32,202 nt of DNA from an uncultured Flavipsychrobacter sp. (GTDB lineage: Bacteria > Bacteroidota > Bacteroidia > Chitinophagales > Chitinophagaceae): assembly GCA_964585115.1 (NCBI GenBank), contig CAZPDA010000002.1, positions 1 to 32,202 of the forward strand, read 5' to 3'. The first letter of the stretch is position 1; each line of letters opens with the position of its first letter. Shown here one piece after another: positions 18,733 through 24,712 of the stretch. The position numbers and the translations under genes were made by a program. Under the pieces are notes generated by a model. That model saw only the letters and a list, made by a program, of their open reading frames with translations, had not been told where the DNA came from and searched no databases.

Positions 18733-20589
18733 ATGGGTAAAGTAGCGATAAACCTGGCAACAGGTAGTTTACAAAAAGAAGAAACAATAGTGGGTATAGA
18801 CCTTGGTACTACCAACAGTCTTATAGCTATTGTGAGAGAAGACAGCAAAAAGCCGGTAGCACTAAGAGAGACCGATGGGTTGACCTTAGTACCCTCTATC
18901 GTACACTTTGATAAAGAAGGCAATGTGCAGGTAGGTAATGAGGCTAAACAAAACCTTGTAGCTGCTCCTGAGCGTACTATCTATTCGGCAAAACGCCTGA
19001 TGGGTAAGTCTTATAATGACGTAAAAGACCACACAGCTCTTTTTGCTTATAAAGTGCTGGATAACGATACGGATGAGCTTGTAAAAGTGCAGATAGGCGA
19101 TAAATTCTACTCTCCTATCGAGCTTTCATCTTACATACTAAAAGAGCTAAAGCACAGAGCAGAGCACATACTTAAAACACCAGTTAACAAGGCTGTAATT
19201 ACGGTGCCTGCTTATTTCAATGATGCTCAACGTCAGGCTACCAGAGATGCCGGCAAACTGGCAGGTCTGGATGTACTACGTATTGTAAATGAGCCTACTG
19301 CGGCAAGCCTTGCCTATGGCATGGGTGTTAGCCCGGATGAAGATAAGACCATAGCTGTATACGACCTTGGTGGCGGTACATTCGATATATCAATACTTAA
19401 GATAACGAATGGCATATTTGAAGTATTGGCAACTAACGGTGACACCTACCTTGGTGGCGATGATATGGATAGAGCCATTGTAGAGTATTGGATAGCAGAG
19501 CTAGGGCTAAATAACGATGTAGCTGATAATAAGACCTTAGTGCAAGAGCTACGTGTACTTGCCGAAGAAGCTAAAAAGCATCTTACTAGTAATGACAGCT
19601 TTGAAGGTACTATTGATGGCAAACAAGTAGTGCTATACAAAGGGGTCTTCAACGAACTAATACAAGGATTAATAGATAGAACAATAAACGCTTGTAAGGG
19701 CGCACTTAAAGATGCAGAGCTTAAAAATAGTGATATTGATGCTGTGGTGATGGTTGGCGGTTCTACAAGAGTACCTTATGTAAAAGAGTGTATCAAAGAG
19801 TTCTTTGGTAAGGATGTACATGACGAACTGAACCCTGACGAGGTGGTGGCTCTTGGAGCTGCTGTACAAGCAGATATACTTGCCGGTAATAATACGGACA
19901 TGCTACTACTTGATGTCACACCACTAAGTCTTGGCTTGGAAACCATGGGCGGACTAATGGACGTATTGATACCACGTAACTCTAAAATACCAACCAAAGT
20001 AGGCCGACAATATACCACACATAAAGACGGGCAAAGCGGTATGCGTATCTCCGTATATCAAGGGGAGCGCGACTTGGTGAAGGATAATAGAAAGCTTGCT
20101 GAATTCAACTTGACAGGCATACCCGCTATGCCTGCCGGACTGCCTAAAGTGGAGGTAACCTTTTTGATAGATGCCGACGGCATCTTAAAGGTGAGCGCTA
20201 CGGAACTGAGGAGTGGTGTGGCGCAAAGTATTGAAGTAAAACCTCAATACGGACTTACCGACGAGCAAGTAGAACAAATGTTGATGGACTCTCTTACTCA
20301 TGCTAAAGAAGACATGACGACCAGAGCACTGGTTGAAGCAACAACAGAAGCTGAGCAGATGATAGACACCACTGAAAGCTTCATAAAAAAGCATGAGCAA
20401 TACCTTAGCGAAGAGGAGCAAACACTTACACTAAATCAGATACACGCATTAAGACAAGCTATTACTGCTAAAGATAAAGATGCGATACAAAAAGAGACGG
20501 AACAGCTTAACGATGTTACCAGACCTTTTGCTGAGCGCGTAATGGATGTTGCCGTGAAAGATGCAATGAAAGGAAAGAAAATAATGTAG
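18733..20589 (+). CDS. hscA: HscA-type Hsp70 chaperone
   Basis: 618 aa with [36 protein letters not shown] and LGGDDMD motifs. The substrate-binding region [17 protein letters not shown]...YQGER...[12 protein letters not shown] resembles E. coli HscA more than DnaK, as far as I recall. Confidence 0.85.
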
Positions 20590-20618
20590 TAGGCTTACTA
20601 CTAACTGAGCTATAATAT

Positions 20619-20640
20619 AAAAGCCCCTTTCGGGGCTTTT
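20619..20640. terminator. Bidirectional intrinsic terminator between hscA-like gene and aspartate kinase
   Basis: AAAAGCCCC / TTTC / GGGGCTTTT is a perfect 9-bp stem flanked by A and T runs. It abuts the aspartate kinase stop codon. Confidence 0.85.
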
Positions 20641-20641
20641 A

Positions 20642-21907
20642 TTATTTCATGACCAGCTGAACGGTCTCTCTTGTTTTTTGCTCTAGCAATATATGTTTGC
20701 CCTTGGTAAGGTTTGCCAATACTTCAGGAGTATAGTGCCTTATTGTTAACAGGCTCACCCCTTCATTATCAAACACTTTATAGTTCTTCTTCAGCTCTGC
20801 TAAAAGTTCAGGTAGTTTTCTCTCTCTATGGTCTATACATGCAATGAAACTAATTGCAGCATTTTGTATCAGGTTCACCTGTACGTTCATCTTGTGGAAG
20901 ATACCATACAGTTCGCTTAGCTTATCCTCTGTGATGAATGAGAAATCTCTTGCTGTAAGTTGTATCAATAGCTGGTTCTTCTTCAGTACTATCAATGGCG
21001 GGTAGAATAGATTACTCACTTCGCTTGTAATAATGGTACCTTTCAGTTCTTTATCTAAGAAACACTTTACGTATAACGGAATGCTATTGTTCTGTAAAGG
21101 CTTAATAGTTTTAGGGTGAACAACTTGTGCTCCATAGTAGGCCATCTCGATCATCTCATGATAACTAATAGCTTCTATCTTCACCGTATCAGAAAATTGT
21201 TTTGGATCCGCATTCTTCAAACCTTCAACATCCTTCCATATCGTCACGCTATCTGCATCGGTCATAGTAGCTAATAGTGCTGCTGAGTAATCAGACCCTT
21301 CTCTACCAAGAGAAGCTGTAGCATTGTCAGAAGTAGCACCGATAAAACCTTGCGTTATCACACTCTTGCCCTCTTCCAGCAATGGTGCTACGGTAGCATC
21401 ACATTGTTGTTTTGAATACGCCAGGTCTACCTTTGCATCGCGATAAGTATCGTTGGTTCTTATCACATCTCGTACATCAACCCAAGCAAAGTTTAGTCCT
21501 TCTTGATTCAAGTATTGATTGAATATAGTAGTAGATAGCAATTCACCTACACAAATTATTTGGTCGTATGTATAATCGAACTTATCTGCCGAAGCATCAT
21601 CTATTCCCCACTGTAGCTCTGTAAAGAACACGTTCATTTGCTTCGTAGCTTCCTTCAGACTTTCACCCTTCAACAGCTCTGTTGCGTATGCTATATGCTT
21701 TGCTTCTAACTCTTTTGCCAGCTTATGGGCATCCTCTTTTTTATCCTTACAAGCAGTCTCAATTATTGCTTCTAAAGCGTTTGTAGTTTTACCCAACGCA
21801 GATACCACCATTAGTATAGGATGAGTTGTCTCTTGAATAATAGGCAATAATGCCTGCATTCTCTCTGGTGTAGCAATAGATGCTCCACCGAATTTGTAAA
21901 CTTGCAT
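20642..21907 (-). CDS. lysC: Aspartate kinase (monofunctional, C-terminal ACT region)
   Basis: 421 aa with N-terminal MQVYKFGGASI, GREGSDYSAALLA and DVEGLKNADP motifs typical of the amino-acid kinase family. Confidence 0.92.
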   Translation of the reverse strand: MQVYKFGGASIATPERMQALLPIIQETTHPILMVVSALGKTTNALEAIIETACKDKKEDAHKLAKELEAKHIAYATELLKGESLKEATKQMNVFFTELQWGIDDASADKFDYTYDQIICVGELLSTTIFNQYLNQEGLNFAWVDVRDVIRTNDTYRDAKVDLAYSKQQCDATVAPLLEEGKSVITQGFIGATSDNATASLGREGSDYSAALLATMTDADSVTIWKDVEGLKNADPKQFSDTVKIEAISYHEMIEMAYYGAQVVHPKTIKPLQNNSIPLYVKCFLDKELKGTIITSEVSNLFYPPLIVLKKNQLLIQLTARDFSFITEDKLSELYGIFHKMNVQVNLIQNAAISFIACIDHRERKLPELLAELKKNYKVFDNEGVSLLTIRHYTPEVLANLTKGKHILLEQKTRETVQLVMK

Positions 21908-21925
21908 AATTACACTGTGTTATAT

Positions 21926-21957
21926 AACAAACAAGGCTTACCGATCGGTAAGCCTTG
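21926..21957 (-). terminator. Intrinsic terminator acting as candidate attenuator upstream of aspartate kinase
   Basis: On the minus strand, CAAGGCTTACC-GATC-GGTAAGCCTTG forms an 11-bp perfect stem followed by TTTGTT. It ends 18 nt before the lysC ATG. Confidence 0.7.
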
Positions 21958-21994
21958 TCTTAAAGTATGTTTTTCTACACACGACTATCTTGGC

Positions 21995-22045
21995 TTACCC
22001 GTTGGTAATGCATTTCTTAGTCTTGTATAGCTTTTTCATCATCAT
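21995..22045 (-). CDS. Putative 16-codon leader peptide MMMKKLYKTKKCITNG
   Basis: ATGATGATGAAAAAGCTATACAAGACTAAGAAATGCATTACCAACGGGTAA on the minus strand. Twelve of 16 residues are aspartate-family amino acids (3 Met, 5 Lys, 2 Thr, 1 Ile, 1 Asn). The stop codon lies inside the anti-terminator arm. Confidence 0.45.
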   Translation of the reverse strand: MMMKKLYKTKKCITNG

Positions 22046-22053
22046 TGTGGGTG

Positions 22054-22084
22054 CAAAAATATATCATTTTCCTAATCGTGCAAA
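22054..22084 (-). promoter_or_regulatory. Consensus Bacteroidota sigma-A-type promoter (TTTG-N19-TAttTTTG)
   Basis: On the minus strand, TTTG is at 22084-22081. A 19-nt spacer follows, then TATTTTTG at 22061-22054. The promoter starts 2 nt after the upstream gene's stop codon and sits just upstream of the leader ORF. Confidence 0.55.
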
Positions 22085-22086
22085 TA

Positions 22087-23706
22087 TTATTCAAAAAGCT
22101 CTTGTAAGCTACGTGGTCTTTTCTCATCTAGCCAGATGAACCGTTTGAGCTTCATATTAGCCAGGTCGGCCTCTAATAGAGGGGTCATTTTCTGCTGTAC
22201 ATCCTGCTCGAACAGAATGAAGTCTATCTGCTCATCTTTGAATACTATCCTAAGCCTTGCACTAGATGCTTCATTTACTCCTATGTAGGCATCATTATCA
22301 TCTTTAGAATAGTAAATAGTTTCGGCATTTGGTTTTACAACTATCTCATCTATCACCCCATTATGAAAGAAACCTGTAAGTGTTTTTCCTTGTATCTGGT
22401 CGAATAGCTGTGCTTTCTCCGGTCCTGACTGTGATACTACAAAAGACTTGCTAGGCACGTACATTTTTTTCAGGTTACTACTATCCATATACAGCAGTAT
22501 AGTATCACCTGTTATCTGGCTTTTTCTAGACCATAATACAGGGGTATATATCAAGCGCATCACAGAATCCACATCTGTATACACAAGGCTATCGCAGCGT
22601 CCTTGCAGCGAGTCAGAGAATATCATAACATTGTGATAGCAAGTAAAATAGCGTGTATCTACAGTATCTACTTGAGTAGTATCAGCAACCATCTGTACCA
22701 CCTCTTTTTTCTTCTTTCCCTTACCTACTACTTTTACCACTTCTATTGAGTCAACATCCTTGGCTATAGGAGCAGAGAAGAAAGTATCTGCTCTTATAAA
22801 CAAGCTATCATCACCATTCATCTTCTTCAGCACTGGCTTTATACTTGCCAGCATCGTTTCAGCATTTTCATCTATATCTGCTCTGCCACAATAGAGTGTT
22901 GACTTCTGTACCGTATCTATTGCTATAACGTTACCTACGGCTAAGCCTACGCCTTTCCCTCTATCGTAGTAAGAAGAATCTGACTCTATATACTGCTCTT
23001 CTGTTTGTGAGGAAGAACGGCAAGGGAAATGTGCTATTTCTTTCTCGGTATCATATGTGCCGCATGTTGTTATCAATACAGACTTATCGCTGGTAACAAT
23101 TGAGTGAGCATAGAATACTACTATCTTGGTCTGGGTATTATATCCCATATCCATAGAAGATATTTCATACTCAGGATCATAGACTAGTACATTTTGTGTA
23201 AACCGTGCATCTTTAGACCTTAGGTTATAAACACCTTGATCACTAGACAAAGTTGTGGTACCTGTTTGCAGAGTACCTCCATTTGAATAGGTACCAACCT
23301 TAGTGGTCATATCGTATACTACTTGGTCTGCCCATAGATTATCCTTACCGTCCGTAAGGTTTACACTACCTATCATATAGGCAAGTTTTTTATTGCCTAT
23401 ATAGCGCAAATAGTCTCCAGTTACACGTGTGCCATCAGGCTGCACTATAACTACATCTCCAAATGCCTCTACATTATTCGTCTCTATATTCAGGTAGGCA
23501 CTATCGCAATACATCTTGCTGTCTCCTTGCTTCAGTTGAACATCTCCTACTAACTTATTGAATGAGTTTGTATCTGTTTGTACGTATTCTGCATAGTCTG
23601 CATATACTATATCTACGTTCACCTTACTAGAGGTGTCGCTTTTAGGCTTTTGCTGGGCACTACTGTATAGGGACAATAGCAACATGCAAGCCATTAAGGC
23701 TTGCAT
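22087..23706 (-). CDS. OstA/LptA-like beta-jellyroll repeat protein (two modules joined by a Lys-rich linker), exported
   Basis: I chose ATG 23706, which gives signal peptide MQALMACMLLLSLYSSAQQ. The N-terminal half has the LptA/OstA_N-like pattern (LVGDVQLKQGDSKMYCDSAYLNIETNNVEAFGDVVIV..DGTRVTGDYLRY). A second similar module follows the GKGKKKKE linker (NVMIFSDSLQGRCDSLVYTDVDSVMRL..). The family call is by eye. Confidence 0.6.
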   Translation of the reverse strand: MQALMACMLLLSLYSSAQQKPKSDTSSKVNVDIVYADYAEYVQTDTNSFNKLVGDVQLKQGDSKMYCDSAYLNIETNNVEAFGDVVIVQPDGTRVTGDYLRYIGNKKLAYMIGSVNLTDGKDNLWADQVVYDMTTKVGTYSNGGTLQTGTTTLSSDQGVYNLRSKDARFTQNVLVYDPEYEISSMDMGYNTQTKIVVFYAHSIVTSDKSVLITTCGTYDTEKEIAHFPCRSSSQTEEQYIESDSSYYDRGKGVGLAVGNVIAIDTVQKSTLYCGRADIDENAETMLASIKPVLKKMNGDDSLFIRADTFFSAPIAKDVDSIEVVKVVGKGKKKKEVVQMVADTTQVDTVDTRYFTCYHNVMIFSDSLQGRCDSLVYTDVDSVMRLIYTPVLWSRKSQITGDTILLYMDSSNLKKMYVPSKSFVVSQSGPEKAQLFDQIQGKTLTGFFHNGVIDEIVVKPNAETIYYSKDDNDAYIGVNEASSARLRIVFKDEQIDFILFEQDVQQKMTPLLEADLANMKLKRFIWLDEKRPRSLQELFE

Positions 23707-23755
23707 CTTTATGCTTATGAAAAAGCTCTTTATCACGTTAGTGAGCAATGATCAG

Positions 23756-24712
23756 TTATTTGTCTTTATCTTTTTGCTTCTTACCAAATATGGTAACATT
23801 GATATAGCGAGAAGGGTGTGCATTGATGTCTTCGATCAATGTATTCAGCGACTCCATCGTTTGTGTAAGGTTTGTATACAGCTCTTTGTCGTTCACCATC
23901 ATACCCAACGAACCTTGCGTTCCGTTCAGCTTACTAACAACCGCTTGTAAATCTGATATAGTAGACTGCAGATCTTGAACTGTTTTCTCTATCGGGGCAT
24001 TTGCTAATTGTTTAGTAGTAGCCTCTGCATTCTGAATGATATTTGTAATATTCTCGTTGTTCTTAGCAAGGTTAGATGTTATGCTATTAGTATTCTGGAT
24101 GATAGACGCCAAGTTCTTACTCTCACCATTTAGCTGATTAGCTAGCTCAGAAAGGTTGGTCATGGTAACATCTAGTGATGCAATTATACTCGTAATATCA
24201 TTCGCAGTATTCTCATTTAGTATACCACCCAGACCAATAAGCACCGTATCTAAAGATGCAGCAACATGTCTTACCTCTAATATTAGTGGTGCAAGCTCAG
24301 ATGATATGTTATCTAACATACCACTTTGAACAGATGATGGCAATTCAGCTCCGTCTTCAACAAGGTCGTTGCCCGCTCCGAGGTTTAACTTTATGACCCT
24401 AGGCTCAATGATGTTAACAGAGGTAAGTTCCGCGGTAGTACCTACAGGAACGTCAACATTCTTACTTACTGCTATATTTACTTTAACCTTCTTCCCATTA
24501 TTATAGTCTATGCTTAAAACCCTACCAACACTCATACCTTTCACCTGTACTGCAGCAGATTGTTTAAGCCCTTGTACATTGTCGTAATAAACATAGTACT
24601 CATTCTCTCCTGAGAAGATATCTGCTCCTTTTAAGAAGTAGAACCCAAAGAATAGAATAAGGAATGATGCTGCTACTAACACACCAACCTTTACCTCATT
24701 AGAGAACTTCAT
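23756..24712 (-). CDS. mlaD: MlaD/MCE-family protein with long C-terminal helical extension
   Basis: 318 aa. The N-terminal anchor is EVKVGVLVAASFLILFFGFYFL and the MCE core is V.VKGMSVGRV..I. The following ~190 aa are Asn/Leu/Ser/Thr-rich heptad-like sequence. Confidence 0.82.
   Translation of the reverse strand: MKFSNEVKVGVLVAASFLILFFGFYFLKGADIFSGENEYYVYYDNVQGLKQSAAVQVKGMSVGRVLSIDYNNGKKVKVNIAVSKNVDVPVGTTAELTSVNIIEPRVIKLNLGAGNDLVEDGAELPSSVQSGMLDNISSELAPLILEVRHVAASLDTVLIGLGGILNENTANDITSIIASLDVTMTNLSELANQLNGESKNLASIIQNTNSITSNLAKNNENITNIIQNAEATTKQLANAPIEKTVQDLQSTISDLQAVVSKLNGTQGSLGMMVNDKELYTNLTQTMESLNTLIEDINAHPSRYINVTIFGKKQKDKDK

Follow-up and report, generated by a model that had tools for sequence, protein, structure and literature searches.

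A conserved leader with a lysine-rich reading frame upstream of aspartate kinase genes in Chitinophagaceae: a probable leader-peptide attenuator

The genes of lysine biosynthesis are the standard example of control by riboswitches, and most known leader-peptide attenuators concern Trp, His, Phe, Leu, Thr and Ile/Val. The locus studied here raises the question of whether attenuation of this kind may also serve lysine. On a 32,202-nt stretch of DNA from an uncultured Flavipsychrobacter sp. (GenBank assembly GCA_964585115.1, contig CAZPDA010000002.1; the whole stretch is called the window below), a gap of 179 nt separates an OstA_2/LptD_N-like gene (22087-23748) from an aspartate kinase gene of the lysC type (20642-21907), and a leader lies in this gap on the minus strand. 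An earlier note, made from the letters of the window, had proposed a trp/thr-type attenuator with competing 1:2, 2:3 and 3:4 pairings before lysC. The conservation of the element, its reading frame, its covariation and its constrained folds support that proposal. Judged by comparison with related bacteria, the leader is a real, conserved cis-regulatory element, and we consider it fairly probable that it acts as a ribosome-mediated (leader-peptide) transcription attenuator coupling lysC transcription to the supply of charged tRNA-Lys. That some attenuator dependent on the upstream open reading frame (uORF) operates here can be proposed with good confidence; that lysine is the signal, with somewhat less.

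The elements of the leader and its target gene are listed below.

22081-22084, minus strand: -33 element TTTG of a Bacteroidota-type promoter, read directly, 2 nt past the stop codon of the OstA/LptD_N-like gene
22054-22061, minus strand: -7 element TATTTTTG (TAnnTTTG), read directly, with a 19-nt spacer from TTTG
21995-22045, minus strand: leader open reading frame (ORF) MMMKKLYKTKKCITNG and its stop; 16 codons, ATG at 22045, TAA at 21997-21995
22036-22034, 22033-22031 (invariant), 22024-22022 (invariant), 22018-22016 and 22015-22013, minus strand: Lys codons of the leader ORF
21975-22030, minus strand: P1, a three-part hairpin of 56 nt, putative protector and possibly pause hairpin, recognized from its fold and from compensatory changes in P1a
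22030-22024 with 21981-21975, minus strand: P1a, CTATACA with TGTGTAG
22022-22018 with 21987-21983, minus strand: P1b, GACTA with TAGTC
22011-22004, minus strand: segment 1, GCATTACC, pairing with segment 2 as the apex of P1 (UUACC with GGUAA)
21992-21999, minus strand: segment 2, GGTAAGCC, holding the ORF stop TAA (21997-21995); apical 3' arm of P1 and 5' arm of the antiterminator
21947-21999, minus strand: predicted antiterminator, segment 2 with segment 3, 8 bp, enclosing a possible inner hairpin of GTGTGT (21982-21977) with ACATAC (21970-21965)
21957-21947, minus strand: segment 3, CAAGGCTTACC, read directly
21942-21932, minus strand: segment 4, GGTAAGCCTTG, read directly, followed by TTTGTT at 21931-21926
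21926-21960, minus strand: intrinsic terminator made of segment 3, the loop GATC, segment 4 and TTTGTT; stem of 11 bp, extendable to 14 bp
20642-21907, minus strand: monofunctional, lysC-like aspartate kinase gene, 421 aa, ATG at 21907

The full-consensus promoter TTTG-N19-TATTTTTG that the earlier note described is present where it had been placed, and so are segments 1 to 4 and the TTTGTT that follows them. Searched for as TTTG-N18-20-TAnnTTTG, this promoter is the sole full match in the 32-kb window; TAnnTTTG at -7 with TTTG at -33 is the consensus of the Bacteroidota primary Sigma factor (PMC7366714). In the window copy, the ATG of the leader ORF lies 8 nt downstream of the -7 box, so that this ORF is probably leaderless or near-leaderless. 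At the other end of the element, 18 nt separate the 3' end of the terminator from the lysC ATG, and as they hold no promoter box, lysC would be expressed solely by read-through. The downstream ORF was identified as an aspartate kinase by Pfam AA_kinase (4.7e-43); its best NCBIfam match, under that family's cutoff, is lysine-sensitive aspartokinase III, and its best solved relative is the lysine-sensitive AKIII of E. coli (2J0W), a similarity that speaks for lysine as the signal.

If the element is regulatory, it should be found at other lysC genes. Close relatives were obtained by exact-protein look-ups. The leader set comprises 16 related loci of Chitinophagaceae (Flavipsychrobacter, Taibaiella soli and allies) with aspartate kinases 60-100% identical to that of the window, and the ORF and folding counts given below refer to the 14 complete, distinct copies among these leaders. 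The nearest homologues of the kinase are also Chitinophagaceae proteins (Flavipsychrobacter, Taibaiella soli). The uORF and the duplication of segment 2 in segment 4, which the earlier note had suggested seeking in relatives, are conserved in the 16 loci, as are the promoter and the terminator, and loci with kinase identities of 90, 83, 75, 74, 72 and 71% have the same gap of about 179 nt with the same element. A TAnnTTTG box is present in 13 of 13 relatives with 5' sequence, 6-25 nt upstream of the ORF ATG, and TTTG stands at a comparable distance from the -7 box in most of them. A covariance model built from 12 leaders scored 77-120 bits on these training sequences and on near-duplicate copies, and gave no further match in 389 kb of sequence, which took in the rest of the window and 72 loci (L015-L086) whose kinases are about 44-58%, mostly 44-52%, identical to that of the window. 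The same model matched three unseen loci fetched later (Taibaiella soli GCA_003236175.1, a 'Bacteroidetes bacterium 43-93'-like contig and Chitinophagaceae bacterium MMS25-I14) with E = 3e-15 to 9e-12, each time before an aminotransferase-lysC pair; the first of the three is presumably a cultured isolate.

This last arrangement refines the identity of the target. The leader always stands 5' of either lysC or an aspartate-aminotransferase-like gene located directly upstream of lysC. The earlier assignment of lysC as the target thus holds for the window, from which the aminotransferase gene is absent, and has to be widened for about half of the leader-bearing relatives, where the leader precedes the aminotransferase-lysC pair. 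A class-I aminotransferase gene lies between leader and lysC in L088, L091, L008, L010, L014 and L007 (kinase identity 60-71%; L007 is cut off), and the genes located, for class-I pyridoxal-phosphate (PLP) aminotransferases of about 420 aa, are the following.

L088, 1221-2501: aminotransferase gene
L091, 1164-2426: aminotransferase gene
L092, 1152-2414: aminotransferase gene
L093, 1205-2470: aminotransferase gene
L094, 1063-2319: aminotransferase gene
L008, 197-1453: aminotransferase gene
L010, 162-1454: aminotransferase gene

No TAnnTTTG box occurs in the aminotransferase-lysC spacer of the leader-bearing loci, which suggests that the two genes form one operon. The target of the leader is best explained as lysC, ancestrally or alternatively as part of an aminotransferase-lysC operon; the clade of the window either lost the aminotransferase gene or never had it. 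The enzyme most resembles class Ib aspartate aminotransferases (PDB 6F35, 7e-39) and falls under every NCBIfam cutoff. Its identification as an LL-diaminopimelate aminotransferase of the DapL type was rejected (105 bits for a cutoff of 593). The apparent co-regulation with lysC hints at a role in aspartate supply or in lysine-pathway transamination. As a separate observation, the spacers of L091 and L092 (2440-2500 in both) carry tandem TTTTGAC repeats (TTTTGACTTTTGACTTTTGAC...) just 5' of the lysC ATG; these hold no exact TAnnTTTG box.

Not all relatives of this identity range possess the leader. It is missing from L001, L009, L011 and L013, which have a short gap after the upstream gene and no hairpin. 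An ordinary promoter box is found at these leaderless loci ahead of lysC or of the aminotransferase gene, and it is lysC's own box in L009, L011 and L013. A single-protein scan of genome contigs yielded one locus (L001, 67% identical, without the leader), and a metagenome scan yielded only relatives of at most 68% identity. When the 260 nt before lysC were scanned strictly for terminators in 86 loci, the leader had seemed confined to relatives of at least 74% identity. This idea was rejected: the scan was misled because many loci have the leader farther away, about 1.4 kb before lysC and ahead of the inserted aminotransferase gene. A generic search for a terminator with a short ORF ahead of lysC genes of 44-52% identity revealed no other type of leader. 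In the sequences compared, the leader is restricted to the Taibaiella/Flavipsychrobacter-like part of Chitinophagaceae.

The ORF carries a coding signal. Its ATG lies 6-25 nt past the -7 box in 14 of 14 copies, and the frames that follow (14-22 codons) contain no in-frame stop, as compared with 31 and 21 stops in the other two frames. Lysine accounts for 57 of the 243 codons (23.5%), versus 8 and 22 AAR triplets out of frame. The peptides share an invariant core, K-(L/F/M/V/K)-(Y/H/Q)-K, and a third Lys follows three or four codons after it in all copies of the short type. Pairing of the RNA does not account for the conservation of the first invariant Lys codon (AAG, 22033-22031), as this codon is unpaired in P1. 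We consider it unlikely that this conserved K-hydrophobic-[Y/H]-K peptide functions as an arrest peptide. The earlier note had seen in the ORF a richness in residues of the aspartate family as a whole. The ORF itself stands, and the description has to be reduced to lysine-rich: Thr (18), Ile (17) and internal Met (12) are also found among the 243 codons, none of them is positionally conserved, and the Asn of the window peptide is not conserved in relatives. The Thr of the L-T pair is dictated by the sequence of segment 1 (CTTACC, read as CUU-ACC).

The end of the ORF is also informative. L093 carries an in-frame insertion of 3 nt, and its stop (GG-UAG-GCC) is still within segment 2. Four copies (L091, L092, L094 and L008) form a "long type", set apart by a difference of 1 nt in the apical loop; their frame continues across GUA-GGC and ends in the 3' strand of P1a with a conserved ...G/D-I-V stop. 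The location of the stop codon inside segment 2, as claimed earlier, is therefore true of the window and fails in these 4 copies. Separately, we noted that the ORF of the window contains G-AAA-AAG (22037-22031, minus strand), which is exactly A-AAA-AAG in L002, L005 and L006. The latter is a dnaX-type -1 slippery heptamer directly 5' of P1, and a -1 shift there would end at the UAA of GAC-UAA-G (22020-22018). It is not conserved across the family and is probably incidental.

The RNA of the window is strongly folded, with -43 kcal/mol for the leader as a whole (z = -6.3; none of 200 shuffles was equal). Folded alone, P1 reaches -16.9 kcal/mol (z -4.8), the antiterminator from segment 2 to segment 3 reaches -16.7 kcal/mol (z -4.8), and the terminator reaches -21.8 kcal/mol (z -7.0). 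P1 and the antiterminator, the two alternatives that precede the terminator, are thus isoenergetic. The pairing of segments 1 and 2, which the earlier note had drawn as a small hairpin, does exist, and it is merely the apex of the three-part P1 (22030-21975); this apical region is a 28-nt direct repeat (75%) of the terminator hairpin. The 11-bp terminator of segments 3 and 4 was found as drawn, except that its stem can reach 14 bp into the T-run, and for this reason a simple terminator scan missed it.

Covariation was found in the stems. Pairs were counted on a covariance-model-realigned alignment of the 16 leaders with a hand-given structure, a fitted alignment that leans the counts towards the structure, and standard pairs filled 90% of the pair cells, versus 83% in shuffles and 33-48% with slid partners. 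Changes on both sides were seen in 11 of 29 pairs, and the observed covariation score was reached by 0 of 500 shuffles. P1a covaries (for example CG/UA/AU/GC at one pair and UA/CG/UG at another), as do the outer (basal) 4 pairs of the terminator, of which the inner 7 are invariant or show wobble changes only. P1b is poorly conserved in a fixed register, and each sequence folds an equivalent middle helix. RNAalifold on a MAFFT alignment recovered only the apical hairpin and the terminator, because MAFFT misaligned the 3' strand of P1a.

The cores of segments 1 to 4 (CUUACC/GGUARGC and GCUUACC/GGUAAGC) are unchanged or vary by G-U wobble only. GGTARGC is invariant in 15 of 16 leaders, and the complementarity of segments 2 and 3 is 7 bp in the same proportion (15/16), with 6 of 7 in L014. 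Such frozen cores beside freely covarying flanks are expected if each segment pairs with two partners. Encoding a stop codon also constrains segment 2, where the sole change seen in that codon is UAA to UAG. In the linker between P1 and the terminator, a CATA motif (window 21969-21966) is nearly invariant in the 16 leaders; in a fixed register, no more than a 3-bp core can be matched with the 3' strand of P1a. The motif might belong to the antiterminator, act as a pause signal or serve as a binding site.

We then have to consider what a translating ribosome would do to these structures. Folding with and without constraints, as the earlier note had advised, gave the expected switch in 14 of 14 leaders. 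In transcripts ending at the end of segment 3, P1 forms and segment 3 is free in 11 of 14 leaders. Once the 5' half of P1 is removed, the 2:3 helix is closed in the minimum-energy fold of all 14, at -11 to -17.6 kcal/mol. A ribosome footprint was moved along the ORF, masking up to 9 or 12 nt beyond the A-site. In 14/14 leaders, A-site codons of about 3-12, a zone that holds all the conserved Lys codons, gave the antiterminator, and the last 4-5 codons (10 in the long type) masked segment 2. In these models, the folding geometry is that of classical attenuation.

Based on these results, we propose the following sequence of events. Transcription would start a few bases past the TAnnTTTG box, placing the 16-codon ORF at or beside the 5' end of the RNA, in a phylum without Shine-Dalgarno initiation. 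The nascent leader could adopt three mutually exclusive structures, which are P1 with 1:2 at its tip, the antiterminator (2:3) and the terminator (3:4 and the U-run). When lysine is scarce, we infer that a ribosome translating the ORF halts at the Lys codons (codons 4-11, which lie within and beside the 5' strand of P1), where it would melt the outer helix of P1 and hold its 5' strand. Segment 2 would then pair with segment 3, and RNA polymerase would read through into lysC, or into the aminotransferase-like gene and lysC in many relatives. When lysine is plentiful, the ribosome would reach the stop in segment 2 (or beyond it in the long type), segment 2 would be masked or paired again with segment 1, and segment 3 would be left free for the terminator. 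If the ORF is not translated, P1 would form, segment 3 would again be free, and transcription would end 18 nt before the lysC start.

Several observations weigh against this model or parts of it. Lysine is a common residue in A-rich sequence, and the enrichment per sequence is modest (P = 0.0003-0.13 versus nucleotide shuffles); the ORF sequences are related, hence their counts are not independent. The 4 long-type ORFs have only 3-4 Lys in 22 codons. Codons 3-12, the zone of antitermination, also include Leu, Tyr/His, Thr, Ile and Arg codons, so that the switch need not be specific for lysine. In 3 of the 14 leaders, the antiterminator is better than P1 by 1.5-5 kcal/mol in the absence of a ribosome, and P1 would still form first during transcription in these leaders. 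The invariance of the 2:3 helix means that covariation neither supports nor contradicts it. For the inner antiterminator stem (in the window, GUGUGU with ACAUAC), which is plausible, the support is weak and we do not claim it: a 3-bp core is conserved in fixed register, and a shuffled-linker test, which relied on an unreliable automatic definition of the end of P1, gave z of about -0.4 to -2.2. The U-run of the window is interrupted (UUUGUU). Finally, 5' untranslated regions shorter than 10 nt were rare (about 3.7%) in one Bacteroides transcriptome (PMC7366714).

Some of these points could be read as signs of a translation-coupled attenuator without specificity for lysine, which would respond to general translation capacity or to several amino acids (Lys with Thr, Ile and Met). 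In the fold model any stall at codons 3-12 leads to the antiterminator, the ORF of the window also has Thr, Ile and Met codons, and the long-type ORFs combine few Lys with 2-3 Arg. We nevertheless regard this explanation as unlikely, since only the Lys codons are positionally conserved while Thr (18/243) and Ile (17/243) move around, the Thr of L-T derives from segment 1 (CTTACC), and the enzyme resembles a lysine-sensitive aspartate kinase. Another possibility is a structured cis-acting RNA read by a protein or small molecule that binds P1 or the repeated GGTAAGCC/GGCTTACC motifs, the ORF being incidental or auxiliary. The GGTARGC and GCTTACC cores, invariant while other stems covary, could be a mark of sequence-specific recognition, the near-invariant CATA of the linker has no clear pairing role, and the LEU element of Actinobacteria, which resembled an attenuator, behaved otherwise (PMC1262725). 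We think this quite improbable: the frame is open in 14/14 copies as opposed to the 31 and 21 stops elsewhere, the ATG comes after the promoter in every copy, the Lys codons are invariant and the 3-nt insertion is in frame. Moreover, dual pairing and the embedded stop codon explain the frozen cores equally well, and P1 is a simple irregular hairpin, unlike known lysine aptamers, with no Rfam match.

The rival named in the earlier note itself, in which the hairpin is a plain terminator of the OstA/LptD_N-like gene (or belongs to an independent small-peptide gene) and lysC is transcribed separately, is contradicted by the comparison of loci. The hairpin does lie downstream of the OstA-like gene and is strong (-21.8 kcal/mol). 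However, a conserved promoter stands between the OstA stop codon and the hairpin, the 18 nt without a promoter box leave no room for a lysC promoter, and L001 and L009, which keep the OstA-lysC synteny and lack the leader, have no hairpin. In addition, the element travels with aminotransferase-lysC rather than with OstA. This explanation therefore seems to us very remote, and a leader-peptide attenuator sensing lysine remains the reading that we favour.

The surroundings of the locus deserve a brief description. Upstream lie genes for an MlaD-domain protein (window 23756-24712; relatives also have DUF8434/Helical_needle) and for the 553-aa OstA_2/LptD_N/LptC-like protein (22087-23748), and the synteny of this envelope lipid-transport pair (MlaD-domain and OstA-like) with lysC and dnaK is conserved across the clade. 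Between the convergent lysC and dnaK (18733-20589) genes, a perfect 11-bp palindromic hairpin, ATAAAAGCCCC-TTTC-GGGGCTTTTAT, at window 20617-20642 has the look of a terminator acting in both directions. At the corresponding site of relatives, the covariance model of the leader finds weak matches on the reverse strand.

Does the leader belong to a family that is already described? At the gathering threshold, no Rfam family matched the window or 12 related loci. The lysine riboswitch model RF00168, proposed earlier as a negative control, gave no match in the window and relatives, and none even at E <= 10 in window 21700-22300; Thr_leader, His_leader, Leu_leader, Trp_leader, Bacteroid-trp, the leu/phe leader and T-box were likewise absent from the matches at E <= 10 in that interval. 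Reviews and comparative papers treat lysine and lysC as riboswitch-controlled (PMC2659441, PMC1262725). In agreement with the earlier note, which knew of no described Lys/Thr leader-peptide attenuator for lysC in this phylum, the literature searched describes no lysine leader peptide for lysC, Bacteroidota included. The mechanism is a textbook one and, for lysine or lysC in Bacteroidota, apparently not previously described. We lean towards the view that this is the first family of lysine-codon leader-peptide attenuators in Bacteroidota, with a (near-)leaderless ORF, standing in the place of the L-box and co-regulating an aminotransferase-like gene and lysC. If this is true, a lysine-codon attenuator on lysC fills a gap among the amino acids sensed by attenuation and shows control of the entry to the aspartate pathway at the RNA level in a riboswitch-poor lineage, the Chitinophagaceae. 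It would also offer a compact model of how transcription and translation are coupled when the ORF is (near-)leaderless, in a phylum whose initiation rules differ from those of E. coli.

Compared with known systems, the leader combines familiar logic with a different signal and target. Control of lysC at the RNA level in Firmicutes and gamma-proteobacteria usually falls to the lysine riboswitch (L-box), often on a terminator/antiterminator platform (PMC2659441, PMC1262725). Here there is no aptamer, and what is sensed would be the charging of tRNA-Lys, by way of the ribosome, instead of lysine bound directly. Within the phylum, Bacteroid-trp (RF01692) is listed as a cis-regulatory motif of Bacteroidetes (PMC2864571), and Flavobacterium psychrophilum has a 25-aa leader with 8 Ile before ilvE as well as a trp leader (PMC9723704, supplement); in that supplement the lysC rows carry no leader comment, and lysC is not among the reported leaders. 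Bacteroid-trp and the ilvE leader share with our element the phylum, the type of promoter and the proposed mechanism, and differ in amino acid and operons, with no model match.

In Thermus thermophilus, a lysine-codon leader peptide reportedly attenuates lysine biosynthetic genes, and would be a functional precedent for an attenuator that senses lysine; that leader is said to belong to another phylum's alpha-aminoadipate cluster rather than to lysC and the diaminopimelate (DAP) pathway, and its sequence is presumably unrelated. The architecture of the thr, trp, his, leu and pheA attenuators is long established, and the E. coli thr leader (thrL; RF00506), together with trp/his/leu/pheA, follows the same logic as proposed here, that is, a promoter-proximal ORF with codons for the end product, alternative 1:2, 2:3 and 3:4 pairings and an intrinsic terminator. 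Unlike those classical leaders, to which it has no sequence or model similarity, the ORF described here has 14-22 codons with 2 invariant and 1-4 further Lys. The thr leader is the closest parallel in position, as it likewise sits before an aspartate kinase gene (thrA, encoding AK I-homoserine dehydrogenase). In contrast to it, the leader of Flavipsychrobacter and its relatives has Lys codons in place of Thr/Ile, a monofunctional target of the lysC type, a Bacteroidota promoter and an ORF without a Shine-Dalgarno sequence.

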